Assembly: GCA_963719225.1 (NCBI GenBank)
Contig: CAVRAY010000001.1
Coordinates: 2,272,001 to 2,336,000, forward strand
From: Thermoanaerobaculia bacterium
GTDB lineage: Bacteria; Acidobacteriota; Thermoanaerobaculia; UBA5066
DNA: 64,000 bases
Direction of reading: 5' to 3'
Below the pieces are notes generated by a model. The model saw only the letters and a program-made list of their open reading frames with translations, was not told where the DNA came from and did no database searches. Made by a program: the position numbers and the translations under genes. Each line of letters opens with the position of its first letter. The stretch's first letter is position 1. Positions 26,925-52,374 of the stretch are shown here, piece after piece.

Positions 26925-29582
26925 TCACCGTCCCAGGTCCGCGTACCAATTCAGGACGACCGTCGTCGGCGTCATCGCGTCGCGCCCCAGCGGGGCCACC
27001 GTGAGGAAACGCTTCCCGTCGGCGGTCACGAGAAAGCGGTTGCGAGCGACTCCCGAGTCGAAACGACCCTGGAAGAGCGCGTGCGGGGTTCCGGCCGTGA
27101 TGCCGCTTCCGGTCTGAATGTCGACCGCCATGAGTTTCTGATCGAGCGTTCGGTAGTACAGCTCCTTGCCGTCGACGCGCCACTGCGGCTCTCGGCCGCC
27201 CGCGGTGGAGATCTGCCACTTGCCTCCGGGGCCGGGGAAGCTCTGGACGTAGACCTCCACGCGTCCCGACTCGTTCGACTGATACGCCAGAAAACGGCCG
27301 TCCGGCGAGAACACGGCCATCAGCTCGGCAAACGGGGTCTTCAGGAACGGGACGGGCTTGCGCTCGCCGGACATGGGCATGACCCAGATGTCCCAGTTCG
27401 TGTCCTTGCCGAGACTCGAGAAGGCGAGCATTTTCCCGTCGCGACTCCAGTCGCATGCGAACTTCGTCTCGTCCGACTTGAAGATCAGCTTCTCCTCTCC
27501 CTGGCCCTCGACGGCCTTCTCGAAGAGGTCGTCGCCCACGGCGAACACCATGCGGCGGCCGTCGGGAGACCACAGGGGAACGGTCGCAGCGCCGGCGCCG
27601 AACGTGAAGCGGGAGCTGACGCCGCGCTTCAGGTCCCGGACCCAGACGTCGGTCTTGCCGCTCCGCGGATCCGCGAGATCGAACGCGAGGCGATCGTAGC
27701 CCGGGGCGAACGCCGGATTGCGGTAGTCGCCCGGGTCGCCGACCGCTTCGCCCTCCTTGCCCGAGCGGTCCACCCAGACGAGCCTGTCCCCGCGCTCACC
27801 CGTGCGATACGCGAGGGCCCCGTCGCGCGAGACCGAGAAGAGAGCGAGGCCGACGCTGTCCGTGCCGATGTGCTCGGCAAGCGGAATCGGCTCGCCCGTC
27901 GTCTTCATGGCTTTCGCGTCAAACGGCTGGGCGACGAGCGTCCGGTCGCGCACGAAGAGGAGATAGCCGGGCGGCGCATACGTGACGAGCGTCTGTGCGG
28001 GCGCGAGGAGCTTCGTCTCCGCCGAGTCGAGCGTCCCGATCCGGTAAGCGCTGTCCTCCGCCTTCTGCCCGATCGCCATGTAGAGGAAGTGCCGGCCGTC
28101 CGGAAGGAACTCAGGCCAGCCGACCTGCCCCTCCTTGCGCGAAGCGTCAGGCTTTGCGGCGACGACGAGTGTTCCCCCCGCGGCCGAGACGCGGTTGATC
28201 GGCTGCGTGCCCGTGCCGTCGAAGAGAATGACACCCTCGGAGCTCCAGGATCCGTCGGCGCCTCCCGGCGCGTCGCAGATCTTCTGCGGCGGGCCGCCCG
28301 AGACCTCGACCTTCTTGAGCTTGCCCTCCGCGAAGAACCCGAGGAACCGGCTGTCGGGCGACCAGAAAGGCCGCGTCGTGTCCTCCGTGCCGGGGAGAGG
28401 TTGCGCGGCGAGAGCGTTGAGCGGCCGGATCCAGATGCGGCTCTTGCCGGACGCGTCGGTCGCGTTGAACGCGAGGTACCGCCCGTCCGGAGAGAGACGG
28501 GGCGCGTCGATCGTCGTGAGCCCCTCCGGGTTCGCGATCTCGAACCGGACCAGCTTCGGGCGGGCGGGGGCGCGCCGGACGAAGCCCACGGCCAGGGCCG
28601 CCGCCGCGAGGGCGGCAGCCGCCGCGAGAGCCCACGCGAGCCGTTCGCGGCTCTTCCTTCTGTGGGCGACGGGGGCCGGCAGCCCGACCTGCGATCCTCC
28701 CTCCGCGATCCACTGGAGCTGCAGCTTGATGTCGTGAGCCGTCTGGAAGCGGTCCTCGGGATCCTTCGCGAGACAGGTCTTCACGACACGGTCCAGCGCC
28801 GGGGGCGTCATCGGGGCGATCGTCGAGACAGGAGCGGGCTCGTCCTTGAGGATTGCCGAGATCAGGGCGGCGTGACTCTTTCCCTCGAAGGCCTTCCGGC
28901 CCGTCGCCATCTCGTAGATCACGGCGCCGAACGAGAAGATGTCGCTTCGCGCGTCGGATTCCTTGCCCTCGAGCTGCTCCGGCGCCATGTACTGGAACGT
29001 CCCGAGGATCGTGCCCTGCTGCGTGATCGAGCGCGGCATCTCGGTTGGCAGCGACGTGGCCGAGGACGAAGACTTCACGGGCGCCGCCGCCGTCTTCGCG
29101 AGGCCGAAGTCGAGAAGCTTCACCCCGGACTTCGTCAGCATGATGTTCCCCGGCTTCAAGTCGCGGTGGATGATGCCGGCGTGGTGAGCCGCGTCGAGCG
29201 CGCCCGCGATCTCGACCGAGATCTTCAGGAGCTGCTCGGGCTCGAGCGGGCCGCGCAGGAGCCGCTCGGCGATCGTCTCACCCGCGAGGAGCTCCATGAC
29301 GAGTAGATGGCGGGAGGACGAAGAAGGAGAGGAAGAGGGGATTTCTTCGAATGAATAGAGGGTGGCGATCCCGGGATGGTTCAGGCTCGCGAGCAGCCTG
29401 GCTTCCCGCTCGAAGCGGGCCTTGTTCTCTTCACCTTCTAAGAAATCTTGCGGCAGTACCTTCACCGCAACGTCGCGTCCGAGGCGGGAGTCCCTGGCCT
29501 TATAAACCTCTCCCATCCCTCCGGCGCCGAGCGACGAGAGGATTTCGTAAGACCCGAGCCTGTTGCCGGGAGAAAGTGTCAT
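26925..29582 (-). CDS. K3: Ser/Thr kinase-TM-beta-propeller receptor (885 aa)
   Basis: Likely start [10 protein letters not shown] at 29582 (ATGA overlap). [21 protein letters not shown]. Confidence 0.95.
29340..29449. repeat. Box I/box II pair, copy in K3
   Basis: GATTTCTTCGAATG at 29340 and CTCTTCACCTTCTAAGAAATCTT at 29427. Confidence 0.85.
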
Positions 29583-32161
29583 CGAGCCCCCTCCACAAGA
29601 AAAAGATGGGATGACATGCGGCGGCATGCGTACGCGTAGCTCTTGAGGTCGCCGCTGAAGACGAACGGCCCGACGTCCAGGACTCCAGTCAGGTCGGCGG
29701 GGCCGAGCGTGCGCATCGGTTCGCGCCGGCCCGTTGCGATCTCGAGCCTCTCGATGCGGGCGGGAACCTCCCCGCTGCGCGAGACGAGCATCGAACGGCC
29801 GTCTGGGCTCCACCGGATGACCTTGTCTTCGGGAGTCGCGCCCGCGACGGGCCGAGGCTCGCCTCCGTCGACTGGATAGAGGACGAGAGCGCCGCCGCTC
29901 GCCTTCACGAGGAGCAGCTGGCCGTCCGGCGACACGAACCCCTGGCTCGTTCCCTCCGGCGTCACGGGGCGGGGCTTGCCCGCTGCGACGTCCTGCACGA
30001 AGCACCGGACGGCCTTTCCCTCCTGGTGGCCGCAAACGACGATCCTCTTCCCGTCCGGGAAGAACTGCGCCCACTCGTAGCCGACGAGTCCTCCCCGCTC
30101 GAACTTGAGAGGCTCGCCAGCGCCGGTGGGATAGAGCACGAGCTGAGGGGGCGTCGTGAAAATGACGGCGAGCGCCCACTTCCCGTCACGGGACAGGTCG
30201 TTCGCGGCGCCTTCCCCGAGGCGGACGACCGGCGACCCGTCCGTCTGGCGCAGGCACACCGCGTAGTTCACGCCGACGCTCCCGCTCTCTTCCGAAAAGA
30301 GGAGCGTCCTGCCGTCTGAACTCAGAGCCGACGGGTCGGACAGGTCCAGCCACGAGAGGTCGCGCTCCCGAGTCTGGCCCGGCGCGAGGACCGGCATCTC
30401 GCGGAAGAAATCGTCCCGCGTCGTGAGCCAGCGCCCGTCCGACCGGACGTCGTGGATCGTGAGGCCTCCGGCGCTCTCGAGCGCGACTCGCCGCGTGCCC
30501 GCGAGGGTGACTCCGTAGACGCGGAAGTTGTTGTAGGCGTTTCCCGCGGAGAACATGACCTCGTCTCCCGACGGGGACCAGGCCAGTCCCTCCTCGCCCC
30601 AGTAGCCTTCCGAGAGGATCGTCTTCTTCCCGGCGAGGTCCACGACGACGACTTCTCCGCGGTCGTCGAACCGGAACGGATGCTGGAAGAAAGCGATCCG
30701 GTCCCCGCGCGGAGAGAACCGGGGATTGCTGAAGTAGCCGCCCGTCTCGGCGAGGACCTTGCCGGTCGGGTACTCCAGACGGTCCTTGCCCCCGAAGTCC
30801 CGGATCAACGCCAGGTTCGCGCCGTCGGGGGACCAGTCGGCCTCGCGCACACCGTCGAGGACGTCCCTCGGCGCGCCGCCCTCCAGCGGCATCCGCGCGA
30901 GGGTGCCTTCATAGAGGCTGTGACCCTTGTACCGGACGCGGGTGAGCACCGCCAGCTCTCCCTTCGATGAAATCGAAAGCAGGTGTCCGGCGAGCAGGGA
31001 GCGCGGGCTCGCGCCCGGGTAGTCCGCTCGAAGCGAGAAGATCTCCGGCGTGTTCCCGGACGGGGCCGCGCTATAGACGACCGTCTTTCCGTCCGGGGCG
31101 AGCCGGGCGTTGAAGATCGGCTCCTGCCGAAACGTGAGCTGCGCGAAGGACGGGACGGCGACGATCGAGCGCTTTCCCTTCCACAGCCCGACGCCAAACG
31201 ACGCCGCGGCAGCGAGGACGCCGACTGCAATCGCGGCGGCGGGAACCCAGCGACGGACGCTCCGCGTCGACGCAAGCGCGGCGGCCCGGCCGGACGCGGA
31301 GCTCCCGCCCAGCGCTTCGAGGTCGTACGCGAGGTCGCGAGCCGACTGGAACCGTTCCGCCGGGTTCTTCTCGAGGCAATGCCGGACGAGTCGGTCGAGC
31401 TCGGGCGGGATTTTCGCGCCCGAGACGTCCGGGTCGGGCGGCTCCTCCTTGAGGATCGCGTTCATCGTCTCGATCGCCGAGTCGCCCTTGAACGCGCGCC
31501 GGCCCGTCAGCATCTCGAAAAGGACGCAGCCGAACGCGAAGATGTCCGACCGGGCGTCGGCCGGCAGCCCTCTCACCTGCTCGGGCGCCATGTACCCGAC
31601 GGTCCCGAGGAGCGTCCCGGGATCCGTGGCCTTCGCGAGCGTCGGCGAGTTCGTGTCCTCGCCGGCCGTGACCGCGCGTTGCTTCGCGAGACCGAAGTCC
31701 AGGATCTTCGCGCGTCCGTCCTTCGTGAGGACGACGTTTTCGGGCTTGAGGTCCCTGTGAACGATTCCGCTCTCATGCGCCGCCGCGAGGCCGCGCGCGA
31801 TCTGCGCTCCGAGCTCCACGGCCTTGCGCAGAGGCAGGGCCCCCGCGGTGATCCGCTCGCGGAGCGTCTCCCCGTCCACGAGCTCCATCACGAGGAGGTG
31901 CCGGGGAGGAGAACCGGGGATTTCTTCGATTGAATAGATCGCCGCAATGTTCGGATGGTTCAGTGCCGCGACCAGCTTCGCTTCTCGCTCGAAGCGCGCC
32001 CGGCGCTCTTCACCTTCTAAGAAATCTTCCGGCAGCACTTTGACTGCGACGTCCCTCGCCAACCTCAGGTCCCTCCCTCGGTAGACCTCTCCCATCCCTC
32101 CCGCCCCGAGCGGCGAAACGATTTCGTACGCTCCCAGTTTCATTCCGGCGGCGAGCGTCAT
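29579..32161 (-). CDS. K4: Ser/Thr kinase-TM-beta-propeller receptor (second ectodomain class)
   Basis: [11 protein letters not shown]. Ectodomain begins F.QLTFRQ..IFNAR.APDG. Confidence 0.95.
31919..32028. repeat. Box I/box II pair, copy in K4
   Basis: GATTTCTTCGATTG at 31919 and CTCTTCACCTTCTAAGAAATCTT at 32006. Confidence 0.85.
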
Positions 32162-34753
32162 CGCGCTCCCTCCACGAGGAACAGGTGGGAGATGGTCCTC
32201 GAGAAGACGTATGCGTAGCTCTTCTCGTCACTTGCGAGAAACGGAGAGCCGATGGAATTCACGCCGCTCAGGTCCGGCGGTCCGAGCGTCCGCACAGCGT
32301 CACGCTTGCCGGATGAGAGAGACGCGCTCGATGCGCAGGGGAACGTCACTCTCCCGGCAGACGAGAAGCGAGCCTCCGTCCGGACTCCAGCGGATCGCCG
32401 CCTCGTCCGGAGTCGTGTCCGGCACCGGCCGCCCGTCGCCTCCTCCAACCGGATAGACCGCGAGTCCGCCACCACTCGCGCCAACCACGATCTGGCGCGC
32501 GTCCGGCGAGAGGATCCCTCGTGTCGTGCCTTCCGGCGTGATCGCCCGCGGCTTGCCGGCGCCGATCTCCTGAACATAGCACCGCGACGCATGCCCCGGC
32601 TCGTGGCCGCAGACGAGCGCCGACCGGCCGTCGGGGAAGAACCTGGCTGACTCGTAGCTCTCGATCCCGCCGCGATCTAGGCGGCGCGGCTCCCCGGCGC
32701 CGGTCGGATAGAGCACGAGCTGCTGCGGCGACGTGGGCACGACCGCCAGCGCCCATTTTCCGTCGGGGGACAGGTCCGTAGGCATCCCCTCGCCCAGCCG
32801 CACGACGGGCGAGCCGTCGGTGCGGCGCAGACAAACTGCGTAGTTGGCACCGAGGCTGCCGCTGTATTCGACGAAGACGATCGTCTTTCCGTCGGCCGAG
32901 AGCATGGGACGGTCTGAGAGGTCGAGCCACGAGAGGTCTCGCTCAGCGGTCTGGCCGGGCAGGACGACGGGCATGCCCTGGAAGAAGTCATCGCGTGTGG
33001 CGAGCCACCGCCCGTCAGAGCGCACGTCGCGGATCGTCAGGCCTCCCGCGCTCTCGAGCGCGGTCCTCCGGCGTCCGGAGAGCGTCACGGCGATGACCTT
33101 GAACGAGCTGAGGGTGCCGCCTGCCGAGAAGAGGACCTCCTGCCCGCCGGGCGACCACGCGAGGCCCTCCTCGCCCCAGAACCCGTCGGCAAGGACGGTC
33201 TTCTTGCCCTGGAGATCCACGACGGCGACGAGACCCCGGTCGTCCCACCGGACCGGATGCTCGAAGAACGCGATCCGGTCGCCCTTCGGCGAAAAGCGAA
33301 GGTCGCTGAAGTAACCGCCCGTCTCGCACAGAACCGTTCCCGTGGGGAACTCGAGGCGGTCCTTTCCGGCGACCTCGCGGATCAGGGCGAGGCTCGCGCC
33401 GTCGGGAGACCAATCCGCCTCGCGGACGTTCTCGAGAACGTCTCGCGGCGCCCCTCCTTCGAGCGGCATCTGTGCCAATGTGCCCTGGTAAATGTTGTGA
33501 TTGATGTAACGCGCACCCGTCAGCAGCGCGAGGTCGCCCCGCGAAGAGACGGAGAGGAGGTGCACGCCCCGCAGACCCAAGGGCCGGGGCTCGGGGAACT
33601 CCGGGCGCACGGTGAAGATCTCTGGCGTGTTGCCCTGCAGGGCCGCGCTGTAGATGATCGTCCGGCCGTCGGCAGCGAAGCGCGCGTTGAAGATCGCCTG
33701 CTGGCGGTACGTCAACTGGCTGAAAGAGGCGCCGCCCTGCCGGGAAGCGTTCTCCGCCCGCCGCCCGACGAAATAGGCCGCCACCCCGGTCCCGGCGAGG
33801 AGCGCGACGATCGCCACCGGAAGCAGCCCGCGTTTGGGCCTCGCGGAAAACGCCTGCGCGGGCGGGACGCTCGACGCCGAAACACCGGACAGCGCTTCCA
33901 GCGCGAACGCGACGTCGTGCGCCGAGTGAAACCGCTGTTCCGGGTTCTTCTCGATGCAGTGCCGGACGATGCGGTCGAGTCCGGGCGAGATGCTCTGGTT
34001 CGTGACGGAGAGCTCGGGCGGGTCTTCCCTCAGGATCGCCGACATCGTCTCGGCCGCCGAGTCGCCGTGGAACGCCCTCTTCCCCGAGAGCATCTCGTAC
34101 AGGATGGCTCCGAACGAGAAGATGTCCGACCGCGCGTCGGCCGGCTTGCCTTTGACCTGCTCGGGCGACATGTACCCGAGCGTGCCCATCACGACTCCGG
34201 GCTCTGTGCCCGCTGACGCCGTCGGGAGGTTCGTCGCCTGGCGGCCCTCTTCCGGGTGGGTTAGCTTGGCGAGACCGAAGTCGAGGATCTTGAGGCGGCC
34301 ATCCCTCGTCACGAACAGGTTCTCGGGCTTCAGATCGCGGTGCACGATCCCCTTCTCGTGTGCCGCGGCGAGGCCGTGCGAGATTTGCAATGCAAATTCG
34401 ATCGCCTTCCGTTGCGACAACTTTCCCGCCGCGAGGGCCGCGCGCAGCGTTTCGCCCTCGAGCAGCTCCATGACGAGGATGTGGCGCGAGGGGGCACCCG
34501 AAGAAACAGGGATTTCTTCGAATGAATGAATGGCGGCGATGTTCGGATGGTTCAGCGAGGCCAGCAGCTTCGCTTCACGCTCGAATCGCTGCCTTTTCTC
34601 TTCCCCTTCAAAGAATTCTTCCGGGAGGACCTTTACCGCGACGTCCCTCGCGAGCCTCGTGTCCTTCGCCCGGTACACCTCTCCCATCCCCCCCGCGCCG
34701 AGTGGCGCGAGGATCTCGTACGGGCCGAGCTTCGTGCCGGCAGTCAGCGTCAT
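32158..34753 (-). CDS. K5: Ser/Thr kinase-TM-beta-propeller receptor, frameshift near 32315-32322
   Basis: Start [10 protein letters not shown] at 34753. The frame stops at 32300, but the K4-like tail (..[20 protein letters not shown]) continues in another frame to 32158. Confidence 0.88.
34511..34620. repeat. Box I/box II pair, copy in K5
   Basis: GATTTCTTCGAATG at 34511 and CTCTTCCCCTTCAAAGAATTCTT at 34598. Confidence 0.85.
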
Positions 34754-37461
34754 CGGCTCGACTCCTCGCTCTTCTCGAGGAGCCGGGTCCAATGAACGAG
34801 CAGGCTCAGGGGCGGCGAGCCCTGCTCGTCGGGGACAGTGTTGACGAGGAACCTCTGGTGGTCTCCCGTGGCGTCGTAGGCCGATCCGTTCAGGCTCGGA
34901 TGGATCGCAAACAGGAGCGCGGGCGGCCCGGCGTGGAATCCGGAACTCGTGCCGAGCGGCACCGCCATGAGCTTGTTGTCCGGGGTGAGGAACGTGAGCT
35001 CCTTGCCGTCGCGGCGCCAGTGCGGCTGGCTGCCTCCCGCGGTCGAGATCTGCCAGCGGCCGCCGGGGCCCGGGAACGGGCGCACGTAGACCTCGAATCG
35101 CCCGGATTCGTCCGAATCGTATGCAAGCCATCGCCCGTCGGGCGAGAAGCGGCTGTCTCCTTGAAAGTTCGCTTCCGTGGCGAACGGACGGACTTTCTTC
35201 TCTCCCGACGCATCGGCGATCCACAGCTGGTTGTTCCGCTTTCCCTGCGCCGGGACGTTGTCGAGCGAGAGGAATTTTCCGTCCGGAGACCAGTCCTCGG
35301 GAGTCCGAGCGTCGGGAGATTCGAGCAGAACTTCCTCGGCGCTTCCGTCGAAGGACTTCGTCCAAAGATCCTGCCGGTGTCCCTTCGCCTTCCGGTCGGA
35401 CCCGAACAGCAGGCGGTCGCCGCGCGGAGCCCAGACGGGCGCGAAATTGTTCCCGCTGCCGAACACGAACTTCGTGCCGGCTCCTCCGGAGACGTCGTAG
35501 AGCCAGATGTCGGTCGTATTCCGGCCGAGATCGATGAGACCGACCGCGATCCTCCGGCCGTCGGGCGAGAGACGCGGGGCGAACCAGAGACCTGGCTCGC
35601 CGACCGTTCCGGCGGGCCGGCCGTTGCGGTCGAACCAGGCGAGCTGCGACGGGATGGCGAAGGCCGGGATCGAGAGGAGGAGGTCGTTCGACACCGTGAA
35701 CTGGCCGTATCCGTACCAGCTCGAGGTATTCAGGCGCTGCGCGATGGGGACGGGCTCTCCTTGCGCCTCGAGCCGCGCGAGATCGATCTTGACGGCGAAA
35801 AGCGCTCCCTCGTGGAGATAGAGAACGCGTCCCGCCGCGAATGCGGGATTCGAGGCGATCCCCGCGACCAGGGCTTTGTCCGTTTTGCCGTCGAGAGACC
35901 CCACGCGAATCGAGTTCGCGGGATCGCCCGTGTTCCCCGACAGGTTGGCGGCCATGTAAAGGAAGTGCCGCCCGTCCGGCAGGAACACGGGGTATCGATG
36001 GGCGGTGACGTGAAGAGACGCGTCGAGCCGCGTGACCGGTTCCGGCTTGCCGCCCGACGAGGAGACGCGGAACAGGGGCGAGGTCGGCGTCGGGCCGAAG
36101 ACGATGACGCCGTCGCGGTTCCACGCTCCGCCGACGCCCCGCGCCGCTTCGCAGACGGTGAGGGCGGGACCGCCGGACGGGTCGATCTTCTTCAGCGATC
36201 CCTGGGTGAAGTAGCCGATGAACCGGCTGTCGGGCGACCAGAATGGAAAGCTGGCTTCCTCGGCGCCGGCCACCGGGTGCGCCGCGGGGGAGCCGAGGTC
36301 CCTGATCCAGAGGCCCGGTTGCGCGCCCGCTATCGACGCGGTGAACGCCAGCGTTCTCCCGTCGGGAGAGAGCGCGATCGACTCGACGAACGTCTTCTCG
36401 GGAGGCGGGATCGCGGCGAAGATCGGCGCGGGGATGCGCGGAGCACGCCGGAGGAATCCGGCCACGAAGACGACTGCAGCGGCCGCCGCGACAGCCGCGA
36501 GCGTCCATGCGAGCTTCTCGCGGTTCTTCCGCCGGGCGGCGACGGGCGCCGGGAGTCCGGCCTGCGAGCCGCCCTCGCCGACCCACTGGAGCTGGAGCTT
36601 CACGTCGTGCGCCGTCTGGAGACGGTCCTCCGGGTCCTTCGAGAGGCAGGTCGCGATCAGCCGATCGAGCGCCGGCGGCGTCATCGGCGCGATCGACGAG
36701 ACGGGTGGCGGGTTGTCCTTCAGGATCGAGCCGATGAGGCTCGCCTGGCTTTTCCCGTCGAACGCCTTCTTCCCCGTCGCCATCTCGTAGAGCACCACGC
36801 CGAAGGAGAAGATGTCGCTGCGCGCGTCGGCCTCGCCCCCCTCGAGCTGCTCGGGCGCCATGTACTGGAACGTCCCGAGGATCGTGCCCTGCTGCGTCAG
36901 GTTCTGAGGAGGGGCCATCGTGGGCAGCGACGTGGCGCCGGACGTGTGAGCGGCGGGCGCGAGGACCTTCGCGAGGCCGAAGTCCAGGAGCTTCGCGCCG
37001 CTCTTCGTCAGCATGACGTTCCCGGGCTTGAGGTCTCGGTGCACGATCCCCTGCCGGTGCGCCTTGTCGAGCGCGTCGGCGATCTGCATCCCGATCGGCA
37101 GCAGCTGGTCGAGCGCCATCGGCCCCTTCGCGAGGCGGGCCATGAGCGTCTCTCCCTCGATCAGCTCCATGACAAGGACGTGACGCGTTACCGAAGAAGA
37201 GGAAGAAGAAGAACCGGCGATTTCTTCGAATGAAAAGACCGCCGCGATGTTCGGGTGGGTCAAGCCTGCGAGCAACTTCGCTTCCCGCTCGAAACGCGCC
37301 CTGTTCTCTTCACCTTCTAAGAAATCTTCGGGGAGTACCTTGACCGCGACGTCGCGTCCGAGGCGAAGGTCTCGGGCCCGGTAGACCTCTCCCATGCCTC
37401 CCTTGCCCAGCAAGGAGACGATCTCGTACGGACCGAGCCTGGTGCCGGGCGTCAGCGTCAT
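34750..37461 (-). CDS. K6: Ser/Thr kinase-TM-beta-propeller receptor (903 aa)
   Basis: Start [10 protein letters not shown] at 37461. [21 protein letters not shown]. Confidence 0.95.
37219..37328. repeat. Box I/box II pair, copy in K6
   Basis: GATTTCTTCGAATG at 37219 and CTCTTCACCTTCTAAGAAATCTT at 37306. Confidence 0.85.
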
Positions 37462-40067
37462 CTCAGCCCTTCGATGACGTAGAGCGTGCTGCGCTGCACG
37501 ATGTATCGCGCAGCCATCTGGCGACCGGCCTCGCTGAAGCGCATCGATGTGGCCTCGACGCCCACGTAGCCGGCGGGGTTGACGACGCGCCACGTCTGGC
37601 GTTTCCCGGTCGCGGGATCGAGCTTCCAGACCTCGATCGGAAAGCTGCCGGGCCTCGAGGCGTAGAAGCGCCCGTCGGGCGTCCACTGGATCAGCCGCTC
37701 GCCGTCCTCCAGACCCACGATGCGGCGCGGCGGCGCTTGCGGATGGCCGAGATCGAAGATCCCCCATCCAGCCTTCTCGCGCGCGAGGAAGCTCCGGCCG
37801 TCGGGGCTCAGGAACGGCCACGTGTCGAGACCCGTGACGCCCTCCGGCGTGATGGGCTTCGGCGTGCTCCCGTCGAGGCTCTGAACCCAGACGCGGTCCT
37901 CTTTCTCTCCCTCCGCGCCGATGAAGATCAGGCTCTTTCCGTCCTTCTGGAAAGCGACCGACTTGATCGAGCGGATGCCGTGGGCCGGGAGCTCGCGAGG
38001 ACTGCCCGTTCCCGTCGGATAGAGGACCCAGCGCCGGCTCGGCTTCTCGACCCACGCCGCCGCGAGCGATCCGTCCGGCGAGAGAGCGCCCCAGCCGCTG
38101 CTCTTCCCGAGCGGTGTCGCGTGGCCGCCGACGGCGGGCCTGAGGAACAGGTCGGGGAGCGGACCTTCCTCCTCCTCGAAGAGGAGTGTCTTTCCGTCGG
38201 CCGAGCAGTCGAGCAGGTAACTCCACGTGCGCCACGAGAGGTCGACCGGCTGCGCCTGCCCGTCGGCCTGCGCGAGGAGCCCGCCGCGCATCTCTTCCCG
38301 GCTCATGAGGACGCGCCCGTCCGGAGAGACGTCGTGAATCGACAATCCGCCGGCCTGGCTGAAGACCCTGCGCTCTCTTCCGGAAAGGTCCACGGCGTGA
38401 AGAGCGCGGTTGAGAACGTTCGTTCCGGCCGTGAACCAGACTTCCCGCTCTTTCCAGGCGAGCCCGCGGAGAGTGTCGTGATCCTTCGACAGGATCCGAG
38501 TCTTCCCCGCGTCGACGTCGAGGACGGCGACGCGCCCCGCGTCGTCTCCGGCGGCCGGGTGGTCGACGTACGCGAGCAGCTTGCCGTCCGCCGAAAACCT
38601 CAGGTCGCCGAACCACCCCGCGGATTCCGCCCGAACTTTTCCCTGCGGGTACTCGAGAAACGACCGCCCTCCCGCCTCACGTGCGAGCGCGAACTCGCCC
38701 TTCGGCCCGCAGGCGGACTGAAGGACGCCGCCGAGGAGTGGTTTGGGAGCCAGATCCACGCCGAGAGCCGAGCGAGCCAGTGTTCCCTCGAACTGCCACG
38801 TGTCGGCGACCTTGCTCTTCAGCCGCAGGGCCACTTCACCGGCGGGCGAAAGGTCCATGAGCTGAACGTCGCCCTGGCCGAGCGGCCTCTCCTTGGGGTC
38901 GGCGACGGGGGTCGAGAAGAGCTGCCACGGCTCCCCCTGCCAGCTCGCGTCGTAGACGACGTCCTGACCGCCGGGCGCGAACCGGGCCTTGCCGATACGG
39001 CCCTGGCGAAACGAGATCTGCTGGAAGGACGGCTGAGGATGGCGTCCCACGTGCACCGCGCCGGCCAGCCATGTGGCAGTGGCCACGGCCAGCACGGCCG
39101 CGGCACCGAGGCCGATCCACCTCCAGCGCTCGCCCTTCGGCCGGCCCCTTTGCTTCCCGCCGTCGACGGAGGAGATCGTCGTAATGGCTTGAAGGTCGAA
39201 GCCGATGTCTTTCATCGACTGGAAGCGGCTCTCGGGCGACTTCTCGAGGCAGTGAAGAACGAGGCGCTCCAGCGCCGGTGGCATCTGGCCCCGCGTGACC
39301 ACGAGCGCCGCCGGATCGTCGTGAAGGATGGCGTTCAGTGTCTCGACGCCCGACTTTCCTTCGAACGCCTTTCGCCCGCTCAGCATCTCGTACAGGACGA
39401 CCCCGAAGCTGAAGATGTCGGTCCGATGATCCGCGGGCTCGCCGCGCACCTGCTCCGGGCTCATGTAGCCGACGGTCCCCATGACGACGCCGGCCTGCGT
39501 GTGGTGGCTTCCCCCGGCCTCCGTTGGGGCGGTCGTCTGTTGGTCGCTCGGACCGGCCCACTTCGGCAGCTGCTTGGCGAGGCCGAAGTCCAGCAGCTTC
39601 ACCCGGCCGTCACGGCCCAGGAAAATGTTCTCCGGCTTCACGTCGCGGTGGACGATTCCGCGGAGGTGCGCCGCGGCGAGGCCCTCGGCCATCTGAGACG
39701 CCAGTTCGACGGCCTTCTTCGGCGCCAGCGCGCCAGCCCGAAGGCGATCGCGAAGCGACTCCCCTTCGAGCAGCTCCATGACGAGGATGTGGCGCGACGG
39801 CGAAGAGGAAGAAGGAGAGGAAGGGATTTCTTCGAATGAGTGGACGCCCGCGATGTTCGGATGGTTCAGCGAGGCCAGCAGCTTCGCTTCACGCTCGAAT
39901 CGCTGCCTTCTCTCTTCCCCTTCAAAGAATTCTTCCGGGAGGACCTTTACCGCGACGTCTCTCGCGAGCCTCGTGTCCTTCGCCCGGTACACCTCTCCCA
40001 TCCCCCCCGCGCCGATCGCGGAGAGGATTTCGTAGGGCCCCAACTTGGTGCCGGCGGCGAGCGTCAC
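37458..40067 (-). CDS. K7: Ser/Thr kinase-TM-beta-propeller receptor (second ectodomain class)
   Basis: HRDVKPEN, DFG. Ectodomain begins FQQISFRQG...ARFAPGG. Confidence 0.95.
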   Translation of the reverse strand: MTLAAGTKLGPYEILSAIGAGGMGEVYRAKDTRLARDVAVKVLPEEFFEGEERRQRFEREAKLLASLNHPNIAGVHSFEEIPSSPSSSSPSRHILVMELLEGESLRDRLRAGALAPKKAVELASQMAEGLAAAHLRGIVHRDVKPENIFLGRDGRVKLLDFGLAKQLPKWAGPSDQQTTAPTEAGGSHHTQAGVVMGTVGYMSPEQVRGEPADHRTDIFSFGVVLYEMLSGRKAFEGKSGVETLNAILHDDPAALVVTRGQMPPALERLVLHCLEKSPESRFQSMKDIGFDLQAITTISSVDGGKQRGRPKGERWRWIGLGAAAVLAVATATWLAGAVHVGRHPQPSFQQISFRQGRIGKARFAPGGQDVVYDASWQGEPWQLFSTPVADPKERPLGQGDVQLMDLSPAGEVALRLKSKVADTWQFEGTLARSALGVDLAPKPLLGGVLQSACGPKGEFALAREAGGRSFLEYPQGKVRAESAGWFGDLRFSADGKLLAYVDHPAAGDDAGRVAVLDVDAGKTRILSKDHDTLRGLAWKEREVWFTAGTNVLNRALHAVDLSGRERRVFSQAGGLSIHDVSPDGRVLMSREEMRGGLLAQADGQAQPVDLSWRTWSYLLDCSADGKTLLFEEEEGPLPDLFLRPAVGGHATPLGKSSGWGALSPDGSLAAAWVEKPSRRWVLYPTGTGSPRELPAHGIRSIKSVAFQKDGKSLIFIGAEGEKEDRVWVQSLDGSTPKPITPEGVTGLDTWPFLSPDGRSFLAREKAGWGIFDLGHPQAPPRRIVGLEDGERLIQWTPDGRFYASRPGSFPIEVWKLDPATGKRQTWRVVNPAGYVGVEATSMRFSEAGRQMAARYIVQRSTLYVIEGLR
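39825..39934. repeat. Box I/box II pair, copy in K7
   Basis: GATTTCTTCGAATG at 39825 and CTCTTCCCCTTCAAAGAATTCTT at 39912. Confidence 0.85.
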
Positions 40068-40666
40068 GGTTCCTCCTCGATCACGATCTCATCCCCGTCC
40101 ATCGACCTGATCCTGACGAGTGCCTCGACGGGTACGCCCAGGGATGCGACCGCATCGCGGCCACCCTCGAACGCCTTCTCGATGAGCGCGCCGACGCCGA
40201 CGATGCGCGCCCCGGCAGCGCCCGCGAGGCGGGCGAGGCCGAGGATCGTCGCGCCGGACGCGAGGAAGTCGTCCACGATGAGGACGCGCTCGGCGGCACC
40301 GAGGTACTCGGGTGAAACGATGAGCTCCACCGTGCGCCCCTTCGTGTGCGATGGCGCCAGGGTCAGGAAGACCTGGTCGGGCATCGTGATCGGCTTGCTC
40401 TTGCGGGCATAGACGACCGGGATCCCGAGGTGGAGGGCCGTGGCGACCGCGGGGGCGATGCCCGAAATCTCGGCGGTGAGCACCTTCGTCGCGCCCTCCG
40501 GCGCGAAGCGCCGGGCCAGCTCCTTCCCGCAGGTGTCCATGAGACGGGGATCCACCTGGTGGTTGATAAAGCCGTCCACCTTCAGGATCCCGCCACCGAG
40601 GTTGCAGCCGTCGCGCCGGATCCGGTCTGCGAGGAGCGCGTGCGCGCCCGTGGCGATCGGACTCAT
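40064..40666 (-). CDS. xpt: Xanthine phosphoribosyltransferase
   Basis: ILKVDGFINHQVDP.LM, VLTAEISGIAPA, PRPP-binding VLIVDDFLASG, IEKAFEGGR. 200 aa with RTGA overlaps at both ends. Confidence 0.93.
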   Translation of the reverse strand: MSPIATGAHALLADRIRRDGCNLGGGILKVDGFINHQVDPRLMDTCGKELARRFAPEGATKVLTAEISGIAPAVATALHLGIPVVYARKSKPITMPDQVFLTLAPSHTKGRTVELIVSPEYLGAAERVLIVDDFLASGATILGLARLAGAAGARIVGVGALIEKAFEGGRDAVASLGVPVEALVRIRSMDGDEIVIEEEP

Positions 40667-43431
40667 TTCCTGCCGCTCCGCTCCGCCGGCCAGTTCACGA
40701 CGAGGTCGAGCAGGGCATTGGGCTTCTGGCCCTCGCCGACGACGAGGAGGCGCTCGTGGTCGGCCGTCGGGGAGAAGCCCGGCGCCGCCGGGCTCGGGCC
40801 GGGGGCGCGCATGAGGGGCCGGCTCGCACCGACCTCGAGGCTCTCCCCCCGCGACTCGACGCTCACCGCCCGGACGATTCCGGACGTGTCGTGATACAGG
40901 ATTTCCTTGCCGTCGGCGCTCCAGAACGCGTACGCGCCCCCTTCGGTCGAGATCTGCCACTTCCGGCCGGCGCGCGGGAAGGAAGTGGCGTACACCTCCC
41001 AGCGGCCGGACTCGTCGGAGCTGTAGGGTAGCCACTTCCCGTCGGGCGAAAGCGGCGAGGCGACGAGGCTCGCTTTCGACTTGAGGACGACCTCCTGCGC
41101 GTGCGTGGCGTCGAGCGCGAGCGTCCGGATTTCCGCGCCCGGCGCATCGCCCCACTGGACGAACACGATCTTGCCTCCGTCCGGCGTCCAGGCCGACGCC
41201 TCCTTGTCGATGTCCGAGACGAGAAGGGGCTCCTCGTCTCCGGTGCCGTCGAGCGACTTGCGAAAGAGGTCCTCGTGGCCCTTTCGGACCGAGGAAAAGA
41301 CGATGGACCGCCCGTCCGGGGACCAGAGCGGCGACCGGTCGTTCGCGGGGTCGAACGTGAAGCGCGTCCTCACGCCGCGCGCCACGTCCACGATCCAGAT
41401 GTCGTAGGTGGACGTCGCGGCATCGAGGGCCGTCACGGCCGCGAGCTTGCCGTCGGGCGAAAGCACGGCGCCCTGATACTCGCCGGCCTCGCCAACGTAC
41501 TCGGCCGCCTTGCCATCGCGGGTGAACCACCGGAGCCGCGACGCGAGGTCCCCGCGCGCTCCCTGCGTCACGAGAACGCCGTTCTGCGACGCCGAGAAGC
41601 AGGCGATCGCCGTCTGGACCGACGGCATCACGATGCGGTCCACGAGAGGAGACGCCTCGCCCGTGAAAGTTCCATTCGCGTCGATCGGGCGCGCCATCAG
41701 CGTCGCGTCGCGCAGGTAGAGGAGATGGCCCGAGGCGAACTGGGGTGCGGCCGGAGAGCGCAGGAGGACCTTCTCGGCCCCCCCGTCGAGAGACGCGAGG
41801 ACGATCGGGAACCCTTCCGCGGCGGACGCCGCCGAGCGCGCAACGTAGAGGAACCGCTTCCCGTCGGGCAGGAACCGCGGGTGGCGGTGTGAGTTGTCGC
41901 CGCGCTTGAAGTCGATCTTCGTGACTTCGACCGAGTCCCCACCCTTTTCGGAGACCTTGAAGATCGATGTGTTCGCCGAGGGCGCGAAGAGGACGACGCC
42001 CACGGGGCTCCAGGCGCCACCCTTTCCTTCGGGCGCCGGGCAGAGCGTCAGCACCGACCCGTCCGCGACGCCGATCGTCTTCAGCTTCCCGGGCACGAAA
42101 AAGCCCAACGAGCGGCTGTCAGGCGACCAGAACGGGTACTGCGCGCCCTCGGTGTTCGGAAGCACCCGCGCTTCGGCGGCGTCCAGCGGGCGGACGTAGA
42201 GGTTCACCTTCCCGACGCCGTCCGCCGCCGAGAACGCGACGGATTTCCCGTCCGGCGAGACGATGGCCGGGCCAGGGGTGTTGGACTCGAGCCAGAAGCT
42301 CGTGCCCTCCGGAGGCGAGATTCGCGCGCGAACGACCGGCGCCCCCGGGGCGCGAGCGCGCAGCGCGAGTGCCCCAGCCGCGGCCGCGAACGCGGCCGCA
42401 ATCGCCCAGGGGAGAAAGAGGGAGAAAGACTTTTTGTTCCCTCGCTCCAGTCTCGTCCGTTCTGTGCTTGCTACAGCGGGGCTGGGCAACGCGGTCTTTT
42501 CTTCGAAGGGTAATGAGGAAGACGAGGTCGCCGCGCCGGCTGCGCTCAATTCCTCGAGGTCCAGCCTCGCATCGGCGATGTCGTGGAGGCGCTGCTTCGC
42601 GTCCCGCCTCAGGCACTTTCTGAGAATCTCCTTGACCTTCTCCGGTGTTCCCACCGGCAGCGCCTCCCAGTCCGGCTCACCTCTCAGGATCGCCGCGAGC
42701 GTGTCGGAGACGGTCTCGCCTTCGAAAGCGCGCTTGCCCGCGAGCATCTCGTAGAGAACGCAACCGAACGCCCAGACGTCCGTCCGCTTGTCGACCGTCT
42801 TTCCCCGCGCCTGCTCGGGGCTCATGTACGCCGCCGTCCCGAGGATCACGCCCGCCGCCGTCGCGCGCGCCGTCAGCGTCGGCGAATGCGTGACGCCCGC
42901 ACCCGACCCCGCGACCGAATCCCCCTCGAACATCTTCGCGAGGCCGAAGTCCAGGAGCTTCACGCGGCCCTCGGGCGTGACCTTCACGTTCGCGGGTTTC
43001 AGGTCCCGATGCACGATCGCCTTCTCGTGCGCGGACTCCAGCGCCTCGGCGATCTGACGGGCATATGAAAGAGATTCTTCGAGGGAAAGAGGGCCCGACG
43101 CGAGGCGCATTGCGAGGTCTTCTCCCTCGACCAGCTCCATCACGAGGAGATGCCGGGTCGACGGAGAGGAAGAGGAGGAAGAAGAGGGGATTTCTTCGAA
43201 TGCGTAAAGAACGGCGATTCCGGGATGATTCAGGCTCGCGAGCATCCGAGCTTCGCGCTCGAACCTCTGCCGCCTCTCTTCACCTTCGAAGAATTCTTCC
43301 GGCAAGACCTTCAGTGCCACCGCCCGATCGATGCGAACGTCCTTCGCCCGATAGACCTCTCCCATCCCTCCCGCGCCCAAGGGGTCGGTGATCTCGTAAG
43401 AGCCGAGCCTCGTCCCCGTCGCGAACGTCAC
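40663..43431 (-). CDS. K8: Ser/Thr kinase-TM-beta-propeller receptor (922 aa)
   Basis: GTG start (TFATGTRLG) at 43431. HRDLKPAN, DFG, SPDG repeats. Confidence 0.95.
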   Translation of the reverse strand: MTFATGTRLGSYEITDPLGAGGMGEVYRAKDVRIDRAVALKVLPEEFFEGEERRQRFEREARMLASLNHPGIAVLYAFEEIPSSSSSSSPSTRHLLVMELVEGEDLAMRLASGPLSLEESLSYARQIAEALESAHEKAIVHRDLKPANVKVTPEGRVKLLDFGLAKMFEGDSVAGSGAGVTHSPTLTARATAAGVILGTAAYMSPEQARGKTVDKRTDVWAFGCVLYEMLAGKRAFEGETVSDTLAAILRGEPDWEALPVGTPEKVKEILRKCLRRDAKQRLHDIADARLDLEELSAAGAATSSSSLPFEEKTALPSPAVASTERTRLERGNKKSFSLFLPWAIAAAFAAAAGALALRARAPGAPVVRARISPPEGTSFWLESNTPGPAIVSPDGKSVAFSAADGVGKVNLYVRPLDAAEARVLPNTEGAQYPFWSPDSRSLGFFVPGKLKTIGVADGSVLTLCPAPEGKGGAWSPVGVVLFAPSANTSIFKVSEKGGDSVEVTKIDFKRGDNSHRHPRFLPDGKRFLYVARSAASAAEGFPIVLASLDGGAEKVLLRSPAAPQFASGHLLYLRDATLMARPIDANGTFTGEASPLVDRIVMPSVQTAIACFSASQNGVLVTQGARGDLASRLRWFTRDGKAAEYVGEAGEYQGAVLSPDGKLAAVTALDAATSTYDIWIVDVARGVRTRFTFDPANDRSPLWSPDGRSIVFSSVRKGHEDLFRKSLDGTGDEEPLLVSDIDKEASAWTPDGGKIVFVQWGDAPGAEIRTLALDATHAQEVVLKSKASLVASPLSPDGKWLPYSSDESGRWEVYATSFPRAGRKWQISTEGGAYAFWSADGKEILYHDTSGIVRAVSVESRGESLEVGASRPLMRAPGPSPAAPGFSPTADHERLLVVGEGQKPNALLDLVVNWPAERSGRK
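43189..43298. repeat. Box I/box II pair, copy in K8
   Basis: GATTTCTTCGAATG at 43189 and CTCTTCACCTTCGAAGAATTCTT at 43276. Confidence 0.85.
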
Positions 43432-45086
43432 TTCGCGTCGTCCTTCAGCCCCAGCATCTCCCACCGCTGGAGGGAGAGCGGGACGTTCCCATTCTTGTAG
43501 ACGAAGTCGTGGAACGCGCGCAGCCGGAACGAGTCGCCCTGCGCCTTCTTCGCTTCGGCGAGGAGCCGCAAAACCTGGAGCTTCCCGATCTGGTACGTGA
43601 TCGCCTGTCCGGGCGACGACGCGAACGCCGCCGCCTCGGCTCGCGCGGTTTCGGCATCCATCGGGACTGCGGTCCTGAGGTACTCGGCCGCTTGTGGGAT
43701 CGTGAACGTCCCGAGCGCGAGCCTGACGTCCACCTCGACGCGCAGAGCCCTCAGGCGCATGTAGTTCGCGACCATCTCGCGTGTCTTCGGCGCGTCCGCG
43801 TAGAGGCCGGTCGAGAGGAGCAGCTCCTCGGAGTAGAACGCGAGGCCCTCGATCGGGCCGGAGTCGTAGAACGCTCGGCGGATCTCGTCCTCGTGCCGCG
43901 ACGCGAGCGCGAGCTGGAACGCGTGCCCCGGGATCCCCTCGTGCGACATGTGCGGACGCCGGTCCTTCGCCATCGAACCCGCGAAGTAGCCGAGCTTCGC
44001 GGACGGCTTCGGGATCCAGCGGATCGAGGGCTCGCCCGGCCGCGCCGTGTTCGCGAAAAGAGTCCACTCGCCGAAGCCGTCCAGCGCCTCGAGGTACGGC
44101 GGCACGGGCAGGTCGACGTAGCGCGGAAGGTCTGCGGGCACGCTCGCGATCCCCTTCTCCTCGAGGAACCGCCGGATCTCGGCCTCGGCGCGTGCCGTCA
44201 TCGCCGACTGGGCGGCCTGGTTCGGGACCATCGCGAGCTCGGGCGCGCCCGTGTTGCGCTGGCGCTCGTAGACCTCGAGCGCAACGGAGCGGTCGTACTC
44301 CTGCCGGCCCATGAGGAGCAGCTCCTCCGGCGTGAACGGTACGAGAGCGACCTCGCGGAGGAAGAAGAGATAGCCGTCGCGGCCGACCGGCTTCCGGTCC
44401 GACAGCAGCGGCAGACGGGCCTCGAGCCAGACCCTGAAGGACTCCAGCGCCGCGATCGCGCTTTCCGTTGCCGGGCCGACGCGCGCGCGCGCGTCCGGAG
44501 CGAGAAATGGGGAGAGCGCCGCCATGGACGCCTTCAGCTTCAAGCCGATCCTCTGCAGATCCTCGATCGCGAGCTTCGTGAACGGCGCGGCGGCTTCGTG
44601 GAGCATGGCTTGCGCCTGATCCAGCGTGCGCGGGATCGACTCCAGCCGCACCGCGAGGTCCGTGCTGCGCGCCTCGTCGAAGGGTGGCGGCGACAGCATC
44701 GCGTCCACGAGAACCGGCAGCGTCTGGTCCACCCAGAACGTCGGGTCGCGCCGCCACGAGCGCTTGACGTCCAGCTCCCAGCGCACGCGCGCGAGAGCCG
44801 AGCCGATCAGGCGCCGATCCACTTGCCACGGGACCGGACGCGACGGATCGGCGAGCGCCTTCAGGCGTTCCTCGAAGAGGACGAGCGTCCGGCGCCGGGT
44901 CTCGATGGAGTCCGCCGACCAGTCGGGCGCCCAGCCGTGCGGCCGGACGACTCGCGCCACGTCGTCGCGGTCCATCGGCTTCGTGACCGCGCGCCAGGAC
45001 CAGAAGTCGCGGGAAAGCGTCAGGAGGTCGTCGGCCGCGGCCGGGCACGCGAAGGACAGCACGAGTGCGATCGCGACGGATCTCAT
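43428..45086 (-). CDS. Exported DUF885 family protein
   Basis: Signal peptide MRSVAIALVLSFACPAAA, HEGIPGH.FQL, EG.AFYSEE, PGQAITYQIGK, LR.FHD. Confidence 0.85.
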   Translation of the reverse strand: MRSVAIALVLSFACPAAADDLLTLSRDFWSWRAVTKPMDRDDVARVVRPHGWAPDWSADSIETRRRTLVLFEERLKALADPSRPVPWQVDRRLIGSALARVRWELDVKRSWRRDPTFWVDQTLPVLVDAMLSPPPFDEARSTDLAVRLESIPRTLDQAQAMLHEAAAPFTKLAIEDLQRIGLKLKASMAALSPFLAPDARARVGPATESAIAALESFRVWLEARLPLLSDRKPVGRDGYLFFLREVALVPFTPEELLLMGRQEYDRSVALEVYERQRNTGAPELAMVPNQAAQSAMTARAEAEIRRFLEEKGIASVPADLPRYVDLPVPPYLEALDGFGEWTLFANTARPGEPSIRWIPKPSAKLGYFAGSMAKDRRPHMSHEGIPGHAFQLALASRHEDEIRRAFYDSGPIEGLAFYSEELLLSTGLYADAPKTREMVANYMRLRALRVEVDVRLALGTFTIPQAAEYLRTAVPMDAETARAEAAAFASSPGQAITYQIGKLQVLRLLAEAKKAQGDSFRLRAFHDFVYKNGNVPLSLQRWEMLGLKDDAK

Positions 45087-47893: not shown

Positions 47894-47905
47894 GTGTTTG
47901 ACCGG

Positions 47906-47911
47906 ATTCTA
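47906..47911 (-). promoter_or_regulatory. Candidate -10 element (TAGAAT) for the kinase array, near-leaderless
   Basis: TAGAAT lies 12 nt upstream of the K9 GTG. No SD and no clear -35. Confidence 0.35.
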
Positions 47912-47958
47912 GCCGCGAATGTGAAGGAGGGTATGCGCTTTGCACGAATTTCCGCGCG

Positions 47959-48909
47959 ATGGAGGACTATATGGAAGAAATGACAAGGACGACGAGAAGG
48001 TCGAGCGGAATTCGCACGATGGTGGTCGCGAGCGCGGTCGGCGTGATGCTCGCAACCGGGGGCTGCGCGTACAAGGAGCGCGACCAGCTCCGCGCCGAAA
48101 AGGTGCAGCTCACAGCCGAGAAGCAAAAGCTCTCGGATCAGCTGCAATCGATCCAGTCCCAATCGGCCGACGCGAACGCGACGCTGGACGAGGTGCAGAA
48201 GAGCCTGGAAGAAATCCGCGCCAAGGAGCTGAAGGTCATCCAGTCCTCGATCCGGGTGGCCCAGGAAGGACAGGGAAAAACTGCCGGACGTGAGCGGCTC
48301 GAGGCCGAGCTCCAGATGATCCGGGACGCCGTCCACAAAAACCTGGCGAAGCTCGCGCGCCTCGAAAAGGCGAACAAGGCGAGCGGCATCCGTGTCGCAT
48401 CGCTCGAGAAGCTCGGCGAGGAGCTCAAGAAGTCGCTCGAGGAGAAGGCGGCGACGGTCGCCGAGCTCGAGAGAAGGGTCGGGGACCTCTCCAAGACGGT
48501 CCAGACGCAGGCGACGAGCATCGCGGAGAAGGAAGAGACAATTCACAAGGGAGAGACCGAAGTCGCACAGAAGACCAAGGAGCTCAACACCGCGTACGTG
48601 GCGGTCGCCTCCAAGAACGTCCTGCAGAAGAAGGGTGTCGTCGAGAAGAGGGGCTCCATCGCCGGTCTCGGCGGCCGGTGGATCGAGACCGGCAAGTTCG
48701 ATCCCGAGGTCTTCCGCGAGATCGACGTCACGAAGGAGATGGAGGTCGCGATCCCCGCGCCCGCTTCGAAGGTGCAGGTCGTGACCGCGCAGCCGAAAGA
48801 GAGCTACGAGATCGTGGACGGCGGCCCGACCGGCTCGAGGCTCGCCGTGAAGGATCCCTCCGCGTTCTGGAAAGGCGACCGGTATCTCGTCGTGATGATT
48901 CCCAACTGA
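47959..48909 (+). CDS. Coiled-coil lipoprotein of unknown function
   Basis: Lipobox-like LATGGC, long heptad region, C-terminal ..I/V.DP..FW....YLVV motif. Start may be downstream (47980). Confidence 0.8.
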   Translation: MEDYMEEMTRTTRRSSGIRTMVVASAVGVMLATGGCAYKERDQLRAEKVQLTAEKQKLSDQLQSIQSQSADANATLDEVQKSLEEIRAKELKVIQSSIRVAQEGQGKTAGRERLEAELQMIRDAVHKNLAKLARLEKANKASGIRVASLEKLGEELKKSLEEKAATVAELERRVGDLSKTVQTQATSIAEKEETIHKGETEVAQKTKELNTAYVAVASKNVLQKKGVVEKRGSIAGLGGRWIETGKFDPEVFREIDVTKEMEVAIPAPASKVQVVTAQPKESYEIVDGGPTGSRLAVKDPSAFWKGDRYLVVMIPN

Positions 48910-48932
48910 GCTCTGGTCATCCGACGGAATCG

Positions 48933-50245: not shown

Positions 50246-50247
50246 GA

Positions 50248-51696: not shown

Positions 51697-51817
51697 ACCG
51701 ACGAGGCTGAGGAAAACGACCGCCGCGGCACCGGCGACGATCAGAATCGCCCGGCGGAGGCCGACACTCCTCCTGCGACCTCGGGGCGTGATTCCGCGAA
51801 ATGCGAGCAGGAGTCTC

Positions 51818-52261: not shown

Positions 52262-52289
52262 GAAGTTGATGTCTCCTGACGGGTGAAAA

Positions 52290-52304: not shown

Positions 52305-52374
52305 GCAGATCCTTCAAGCGCCAAGCGTTAGTTCGGCACGCGTTACCGATTGCAGCGGCAAGAATGTCCGAGCC

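Follow-up and report, generated by a model that had tools for sequence, protein, structure and literature searches.

A paired, inward-facing DNA motif of one Thermoanaerobaculia genus and the probable conversion of a kinase N-lobe that carries it

The window, meaning here the whole 64-kb stretch of DNA that was analyzed, corresponds to positions 2272001-2336000 of contig C1 in a Thermoanaerobaculia genome of 4.75 Mb and 68% GC. Genomes are denoted by labels of the form G0xx (G000 being the genome of the window itself), the host genus is labeled g1, and a related genus is labeled g11. Genes were called with a custom codon-model script, not taken from a standard annotation. Nine kinase genes (K1-K9), all on the minus strand, lie in the window, and the four that were scanned for domains combine Pkinase with PD40:

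21328..24159, minus strand: K1, Ser/Thr kinase with a membrane segment (by inspection) and a PD40 beta-propeller (domain scan)
24170..26923, minus strand: K2, kinase gene
26925..29582, minus strand: K3, kinase gene, Pkinase and PD40 (domain scan)
29579..32161, minus strand: K4, kinase gene
32158..34753, minus strand: K5, kinase gene, open reading frame stop at 32300 and frameshift near 32310 (domain scan)
34750..37461, minus strand: K6, kinase gene
37458..40067, minus strand: K7, kinase gene, Pkinase and PD40 (domain scan)
40663..43431, minus strand: K8, kinase gene
45083..47893, minus strand: K9, kinase gene

The array is broken by a phosphoribosyltransferase gene (40064-40666) and a DUF885 gene (43428-45086), with overlapping stop and start codons. 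The frameshift of K5 near 32310 falls at a CT repeat (32158-32320), and the tail of the gene runs in another frame up to the start of K4; this is either an assembly error or a real break. Elsewhere in G000, the two halves of contig C2 are inverted copies of each other (139 kb aligned, 68-85% identical), with smpB, glmU, murF, and kinases doubled. C2 is a chimeric mirror join of two related genomes, in line with a contamination of 6%.

A preliminary description of this DNA had claimed that K5 and K7 share an almost identical tract within much more divergent genes, and both parts of the claim hold. The two copies match at 164 of 166 nt, whereas identity over the remaining kinase past codon 100 is 0.56-0.73 and that of the ectodomains is 0.51:

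34536..34701, minus strand: K5 copy of the putative 166-nt conversion tract, codons 18-73, N-lobe (alignment and permutation)
39850..40015, minus strand: K7 copy of the tract, two A/G differences from K5 (alignment and permutation)

By codon alignment, identity between the two genes is 0.75 over codons 1-20, 0.98 over codons 21-60, 0.92 over codons 61-80, and 0.80 over codons 81-100. The maximal segment, codons 18-73, was equaled in none of 300 codon permutations. The tract does hold box II, one of two boxes in the kinase N-lobe, as had been described, but the similarity does not end beside box I. Two further stretches are identical between K5 and K7, namely 18 nt of box I (34508-34525 and 39822-39839) and the 32 nt that lead to the VMELLE hinge; the unit of exchange is therefore more aptly described as the N-lobe as far as VMELLE. 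In the tract, K7 is 0.98 identical to K5 versus 0.73-0.79 to its own four best C-lobe matches; in the C-lobe this pattern is reversed, with 0.77-0.85 to the four best matches versus 0.64 to K5. The near-identity of K5 and K7 is likely the result of ordinary gene-to-gene copying, that is, gene conversion of the kinase N-lobe, with either gene as the possible donor.

An assembly or polishing artifact is an improbable source of this identity. The assembly does have a chimeric second contig as well as frameshifts that are either real or due to indel errors (K5), and K5 and K7 are each recorded from a single contig. However, the tract contains two A/G differences, more identical blocks come after it beyond a cluster of mismatches, similar imperfect tracts across subtypes occur in G001, G005, G006, and G013, and the flanks, at about 65-75% identity, would be too dissimilar for reads to cross-map.

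The wider claim, that recent segmental conversion has homogenized the N-lobe across kinase subtypes, is likewise supported. A permutation scan of 598 within-genome kinase pairs gave 22 pairs with a high-scoring segment, seven of which link divergent subtypes in the N-lobe (K5/K7 and six further tracts in G001, G005, G006, and G013), each of them equaled in 0 of 300 permutations. Most of the remaining segments join close paralogues or fall in the C-lobe; four come from motif-free genomes (0/300 permutations in G029 and 3/300 in G025). The lobe trees, for which 83 kinases were used (117 collected from the own genome and its relatives, 101 kept with the full domain), are incongruent: the label "motif-bearing" changes 13 times on the C-lobe tree, at least nine of these being forced by strong branches, and four times on the N-lobe tree built without the box columns (65 columns; SH-aLRT of the main split, 48). 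Orthologues of K7 carry three different N-lobes, namely an ancestral one (P0002), a KDFLEGEE/KEFFEGEE type (G001, G010, and G013), and the K5 type. Within the K6 clade, motif-free N-lobes are nested among motif-bearing ones, so the spread of the N-lobe may not be one-way. Trees that disagree in this way fit the recombinational spread of one K1-type N-lobe, perhaps with some reversals in the K6 clade. Both boxes are present in 55 of 67 sampled g1 kinases, a sample picked by similarity to K5 and by membership in the array. The idea that breakpoints fall at the boxes, or that the boxes drive the exchange, found no support: the tract ends are the ends of homology, and tracts occur in motif-free relatives too.

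Ectopic conversion between paralogues, as treated in the part of PMC6053082 considered here, accounts for the K5/K7 tract and the N-lobe mosaicism. Unlike the cases in that part of the source, the unit exchanged here would be a half-domain that ends at the hinge and carries a non-coding signal, and the exchange would cross subtypes that are about 60% identical in the C-lobe.

The box II variants are distributed as had been claimed, with DFLEGEE in K3, K4, and K6 and EFFEGEE in the other six genes, and they do cut across C-lobe subtypes, since K4, K5, and K7 sit on one C-lobe branch. Their proposed meaning as a mark of common exchange is another matter. Outside box II, the mean identity between DFLEGEE genes is 0.72 versus 0.71 between DFLEGEE and EFFEGEE genes, which rules out DFLEGEE as a conversion marker; K4 itself is 0.78/0.77 identical to K5/K7 versus 0.69/0.73 to K3/K6. 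Because DFLEGEE genes are no closer to each other than to EFFEGEE genes outside the box, and DFLEGEE is the translation of the genome-wide motif consensus, the split reads as convergence on that consensus and not as common conversion.

Boxes II and I together form one inward-facing pair of the most over-represented non-homopolymer motif of the genome, TTTCTTAGAAGG, with purine-rich arms. The sense strand carries the motif at box II and the opposite strand carries it at box I, and the pair measures 104 bp end to end in nine of nine genes. After homopolymers, the top over-represented 10-mer is TTTCTTAGAA (197 copies versus 15 expected), and a weight matrix finds 825 sites in G000 compared with 120 for the reversed matrix. 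All 28 sites of the window lie within K1-K9. No site was found at window positions 1-21327 and 47894-64000, and these flanks belong to site-free blocks of 35 kb and 60 kb with accessory-looking genes. The pairs and additional sites are as follows, pairs being given without strand:

23919..24022: motif pair, K1 N-lobe (motif scan)
26683..26786: motif pair, K2 N-lobe (motif scan)
29342..29445: motif pair, K3 N-lobe, consensus-type box II DFLEGEE (motif scan)
31921..32024: motif pair, K4 N-lobe, DFLEGEE (motif scan)
34513..34616: inward pair in K5, span 104 bp, box I core start at 34513 (plus strand) and box II core end at 34616 (minus strand)
37221..37324: motif pair, K6 N-lobe, DFLEGEE (motif scan)
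39827..39930: inward pair, K7 (motif scan)
43191..43294: motif pair, K8 N-lobe (motif scan)
47653..47756: motif pair, K9 N-lobe (motif scan)
23238..23361: second pair in K1, at the C-lobe end and juxtamembrane PFEEK
25993 (K2), 42498 (K8), and 46972 (K9, partner at 47118), plus strand: sites matching the second pair of K1
23808..23817, plus strand: extra site at LEESL in K1, with counterparts at 26569 (K2), 43074 (K8), and 47545 (K9)

The K1-type kinases (K1 at 23100-23250 and the matching parts of K2, K8, and K9) have a juxtamembrane PFEEK...SLSLFLPW stretch that is absent from the other subtypes and consists of a motif site and a pyrimidine tract. Among the 69 kinase matches of G000, 16 contain the motif pair, and the boxes are thus not peculiar to the K1-K9 array.

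Across the genome, neighboring sites 30-300 bp apart face inward in 253 cases, point in the same direction in 36 and 26 cases, and face outward in five; 1000 strand shuffles gave a mean of 80 and a maximum of 107 inward pairs. In total, 551 of the 825 sites belong to inward pairs at 40-300 bp, and 81 of the 274 apparent singletons have a weaker inward partner, versus 10 with one on the outer side. The inward spans have their mode at 86-87 bp and a tail to about 250 bp in the own genome. In a pair search of GTDB genomes over the range 79-109 bp, 30 of the 80 loci listed, from at least 118, fell at 86-87 bp, and all 80 were titled Thermoanaerobaculia or Acidobacteriota. Helical periodicity of the spans beyond the first peak was not found (Rayleigh p of at least 0.05 at the best period). 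The 253 pairs lie within one predicted gene in 151 cases, in intergenic sequence in 66, and in mixed positions or over two genes in 36; their host genes include what we take, by eye, to be ileS, hisS, mnmA, and ispE. Spacers mostly have no relative (213 of 244), and the 31 related ones are largely from kinase paralogues and C2 duplicates. Similarity within pairs is slightly above chance (core z, 2.5; outer arm, 7.81 versus 7.50 ± 0.14), with no covariation in the other flanks (z of 0.8, 0.3, -0.6, and 0.8).

Motif sites also occur near the ends of insertion sequences. Five copies of an element that we label IS110-like (G000:C1 1111421-1112942 and 2198824-2210162) each contain a single perfect core of the motif, at about 70 bp from the end, and adjoin GTTAGGC/GTTAGAC-like words, which suggests that they insert into integron attC sites. 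In a 1.34-kb insertion sequence with nine copies in G000 (e.g., C1:2033783-2035122), a weak site of the motif lies 77 bp away from one of the ends.

The motif marks one genus, sits mostly inside genes, and has altered their proteins. Among 157 genomes, every one of the 26 from g1 has 27-245 exact copies of a 12-mer, every one of the 7 from g11 has 1-25, and the remaining 124 (one of which, G019, is unpublished) have 0-3; inward pairs are also present in g11, within 300 kb chosen around known matches. The gene ileS was compared at 28 of 30 loci, two fragments being left out. Its sites occupy the same alignment columns in 19 g1 genomes, are weaker and fewer in three g11 genomes, and are absent in six outgroups. 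The spacers align to outgroup protein, whereas poly-Ser and Lys/Glu/Arg tracts have been inserted outside the pairs. At these conserved positions the pairs have replaced native sequence, with poly-Ser growing outward; the inserted tracts range from 0 to about 20 codons depending on the species. Synonymous divergence along ileS is near saturation. In 64 kinases, the boxes use GAA 57 times (22% in the genome), TCA 49 times (2%), and GGT 44 times (6.5%). A bias toward purines and A/T at four-fold sites reaches about 100 bp outward of the pairs, and 25 of 40 runs of at least five serines lie no more than 45 bp from a site. Peptides encoded by the motif are enriched accordingly (FEEI, 54 versus 7.5 expected; PSKK, 36 versus 5.9; FLEG, 93 versus 31.9). 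Site frequency is lowest in codon-optimal genes (1% versus 20% by quintile), a comparison that is partly circular and weaker after masking. Conserved ileS columns, native spacers, and rare box codons together point to an old signal that acts at the DNA level and overwrites resident sequence.

The sites are also unevenly distributed along the chromosome. A dif-like site at C1:2037584, called like the parS sites with a general consensus sequence, coincides with the switch in skew and is conserved beside a parAB pair. Each 200 kb of C1 holds 37-67 sites up to 1 Mb from dif and 12-39 at greater distances, and distance to dif keeps its effect (z = -5.5) when gene length and codon score are accounted for. 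On the dif contig of G133, the initial 0.8 Mb contains 39 sites and the 1.0 Mb after it 14 (among the 100 of 133 sites listed), with density rising again past 1.8 Mb. The origin side of the gradient in G000 is unreliable because C2 is a mirror chimera. Near the terminus there are site-free stretches of 30-60 kb, and accessory blocks are empty; genes shared with the related genus hold 43 sites in 166 kb and inserted genes hold 9 in 69 kb, a roughly twofold difference in density within a small and region-biased sample. As a separate matter, a second parA-parB operon (G000:C1:2037584-2039524) directly adjoins the dif-like site. Of 30 genomes of the order, 29 have the dif-linked ParB, and in 25 of these 29 the locus includes dif; the operon is possibly a terminus-linked partition system.

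A DNA-binding protein probably docks at the motif. Six candidates for the binder failed or were not specific: (i) the Y1/RAYT transposase (PF01797) was found in 0 of 3 g1 genomes; (ii) the DUF1931 histone fold, the only histone family searched, was found in 0 of 5 genomes; (iii) reverse transcriptase was found in 1 of 5, only in G000; (iv) tyrosine recombinases, ComEC, ParB, FtsK, and SMC are present in motif-positive and motif-free genomes alike; (v) the HU gene beside ftsK is widespread (123 of 157 genomes overall and 90 of the 97 from other families); and (vi) the dif-linked ParB has the same recognition helix in motif-free genera. The query with this HU-family gene (G000:C1:2998748) found it in 0 of 17 g17 genomes and did not find it in several other genera of the same family.

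Several identities for the motif itself were also discarded. It is not a XerC arm, as the dif candidate has a different left arm, and the pairs that flank dif in G000 are not a conserved feature, with sites no more than 400 bp from dif in six of nine g1 genomes. An anti-Shine-Dalgarno mimic does not fit a canonical 16S end and a motif without sense bias, and no autonomous element was found between two distant sites. The parS/NBS type (14-16 bp palindromes read by ParB or Noc) was rejected since the ParB helix does not track the motif and canonical parS lies near dnaA. KOPS and Chi are polar, purine-rich, and over-represented, and the motif is like them in all three respects; however, its orientation does not follow the replichore (123 of 274 singletons are on the leading strand), and genera without the motif have an identical FtsK gamma helix.

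As a tentative explanation, to which we give somewhat less than an even chance, each inward pair would be bound by one bridging or wrapping complex that organizes the terminus half of the chromosome, and the N-lobe bearing the pair would have been spread by conversion, most recently in K5/K7. A protein would read the motif and hold both sites of a pair at once, the shortest common span of about 80-87 bp forming a small loop or a single wrap; the sharp lower peak of the spans may then represent the minimal loop or wrap of the complex, which would help organize the terminus half. Among kinase subtypes, the N-lobe would have moved by ordinary gene conversion, with the K5/K7 tract as the likely latest event, and a conversion that brings a ready-made pair could be favored as it replaces about a dozen point mutations. 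A chromosome-organizing role is preferred over uptake or recombination drive because of the pair geometry and the terminus bias. Several results weigh against it: the six binder candidates failed, the helical periodicity that a rigid loop would predict is lacking, site-free stretches of 30-60 kb lie near the terminus, and outward tracts of 0 to about 20 codons look more like runaway drive than an optimum. Likewise, the origin side of the gradient is unreliable and density in G133 goes up again after 1.8 Mb. For the conversion part, the occurrence of conversion in motif-free genomes, the nesting in the K6 clade, and the SH-aLRT of 48 for the N-lobe split count on the other side. Bacterial matS and the extra XerD sites of Bacillus are few (tens or fewer) and palindromic or half-dif, unlike the 825 polar sites here, which are paired, spread over about 2 Mb, mostly within genes, and also far from dif. 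In its enrichment toward the terminus, the motif resembles matS/MatP (as presented in the part of PMC8669397 considered), which makes it a candidate site for a chromosome-organizing protein.

A less probable reading, yet one that has to be taken seriously, is a drive in which a DNA-uptake, packaging, or recombination-processing machine prefers the pair; alleles would then be passed on more often the better their pairs and the longer their purine arms, and the kinase sweep would be biased conversion. It would better account for the runaway tracts and the accessory gaps, and, in the small region-biased sample, sites are denser in shared than in inserted genes; FEEI, PSKK, and FLEG are enriched, sites are rarest in codon-optimal genes, 55 of 67 sampled g1 kinases have both boxes, and ComEC is present. 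However, the kinases sampled had been selected for their similarity to K5 and their place in the array, all 5 genomes examined for ComEC have it, both motif-free relatives among them, and the 86-bp geometry and terminus bias would be left unexplained. The pattern parallels the uptake sequences of Neisseria (DUS) and of Haemophilus and other Pasteurellaceae (USS) as covered in the parts of PMC2817400 and PMC2397512 considered here: hundreds of taxon-specific copies, many in open reading frames and with biased flanks, raise the frequency of encoded peptides, and a higher density in shared than in recently gained genes may be a further parallel. According to the same part of PMC2397512, though, a neisserial DUS functions as a single site, and DUS in inverted pairs are close neighbors (no more than 21 nt apart) that act as terminators. 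With 551 of 825 sites in inward pairs, and not mostly single with close terminator pairs, a classic uptake sequence was rejected; most sites here are in inward pairs 80-200 bp apart, with purine arms of about 100 bp, in-frame tract insertions, and terminus bias. Whether the bridging complex or drive applies, the boxes need not cause the kinase exchange; their part would be to provide sequence in common and perhaps to benefit the allele that has been converted.

The pair could also act as a single-stranded hairpin (RNA, or unwound DNA) with a large loop, which we regard as unlikely. Minimum-energy folds of single-stranded DNA pair both cores in 58 of 82 sampled pairs, a count without a control, and similarity within pairs is in slight excess (core z, 2.5; outer arm, 7.81 versus 7.50 ± 0.14); on the other hand, any two copies of one motif would pair, the other flanks show no covariation, and mismatches on the mRNA strand are 297 G.U-compatible versus 281 A.C. 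Least probable, in our judgment, is that the pairs are the ends or scars of a miniature mobile element of the REPIN, MITE, or RPE type. Inverted ends around a spacer of about 60-200 bp, and a perfect core near the end of the IS110-like element, would suit such an origin, but it fails because the spacers are unique (213 of 244 without a relative) and native, consisting of in-frame homologous protein sequence, and because Y1/RAYT transposase is found in 0 of 3 g1 genomes. Rickettsia palindromic elements and intragenic MITEs are inserted units with a conserved interior that alter many proteins in frame. The motif also changes many proteins in frame, but unlike them it replaces the sequence already in place with its ends, and insertion is limited to the outer tracts; a whole inserted unit is rejected by the alignment of ileS and kinase spacers to outgroup protein. 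REPINs share the arrangement of two inverted motif copies and a spacer, but in the parts of PMC3337134 and PMC3116915 considered they are extragenic mobile units with a transposase, whereas the spacers here are unique host sequence and mostly coding. That identity was rejected on 151 of 253 pairs lying in one coding sequence, only 31 of 244 spacers being related, and PF01797 in 0 of 3 g1 genomes.

Taken alone, the K5/K7 conversion tract is ordinary. The paired motif, in contrast, is apparently an undescribed variant of genome-wide DNA signals; no earlier description of it was found among the papers listed on the motif sequence, Thermoanaerobaculia repeats, paired over-represented motifs, and Acidobacteria kinase conversion, as judged by titles and the starts of abstracts, with few subscription papers and no supplements. 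It is possible, although we would not call it probable, that one Thermoanaerobaculia clade has a sequence-programmed chromosome unit without a described bacterial counterpart: hundreds of inward polar sites with 100-bp purine arms that place mini-loops or wraps of at least about 80 bp over the terminus half. Such a unit would have the strength to replace sequence in conserved enzymes, to extend poly-Ser and Lys/Glu/Arg tracts in them, and to carry one N-lobe through a whole receptor-kinase family. Bacterial DNA signals with a known effect on the proteome are few, and the searched literature yielded none that has this paired geometry. The sharp taxon boundary (strong in g1, weak in g11, absent in 124 other genomes of the order) should make the binder findable by gene presence and absence, and it offers a natural experiment on selection versus molecular drive. 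The motif is usable as a genus marker for binning, and the odd peptides of this lineage (FLEGEE, FEEI, PSKK, and poly-Ser) are explained as DNA-level signals, not as protein motifs.
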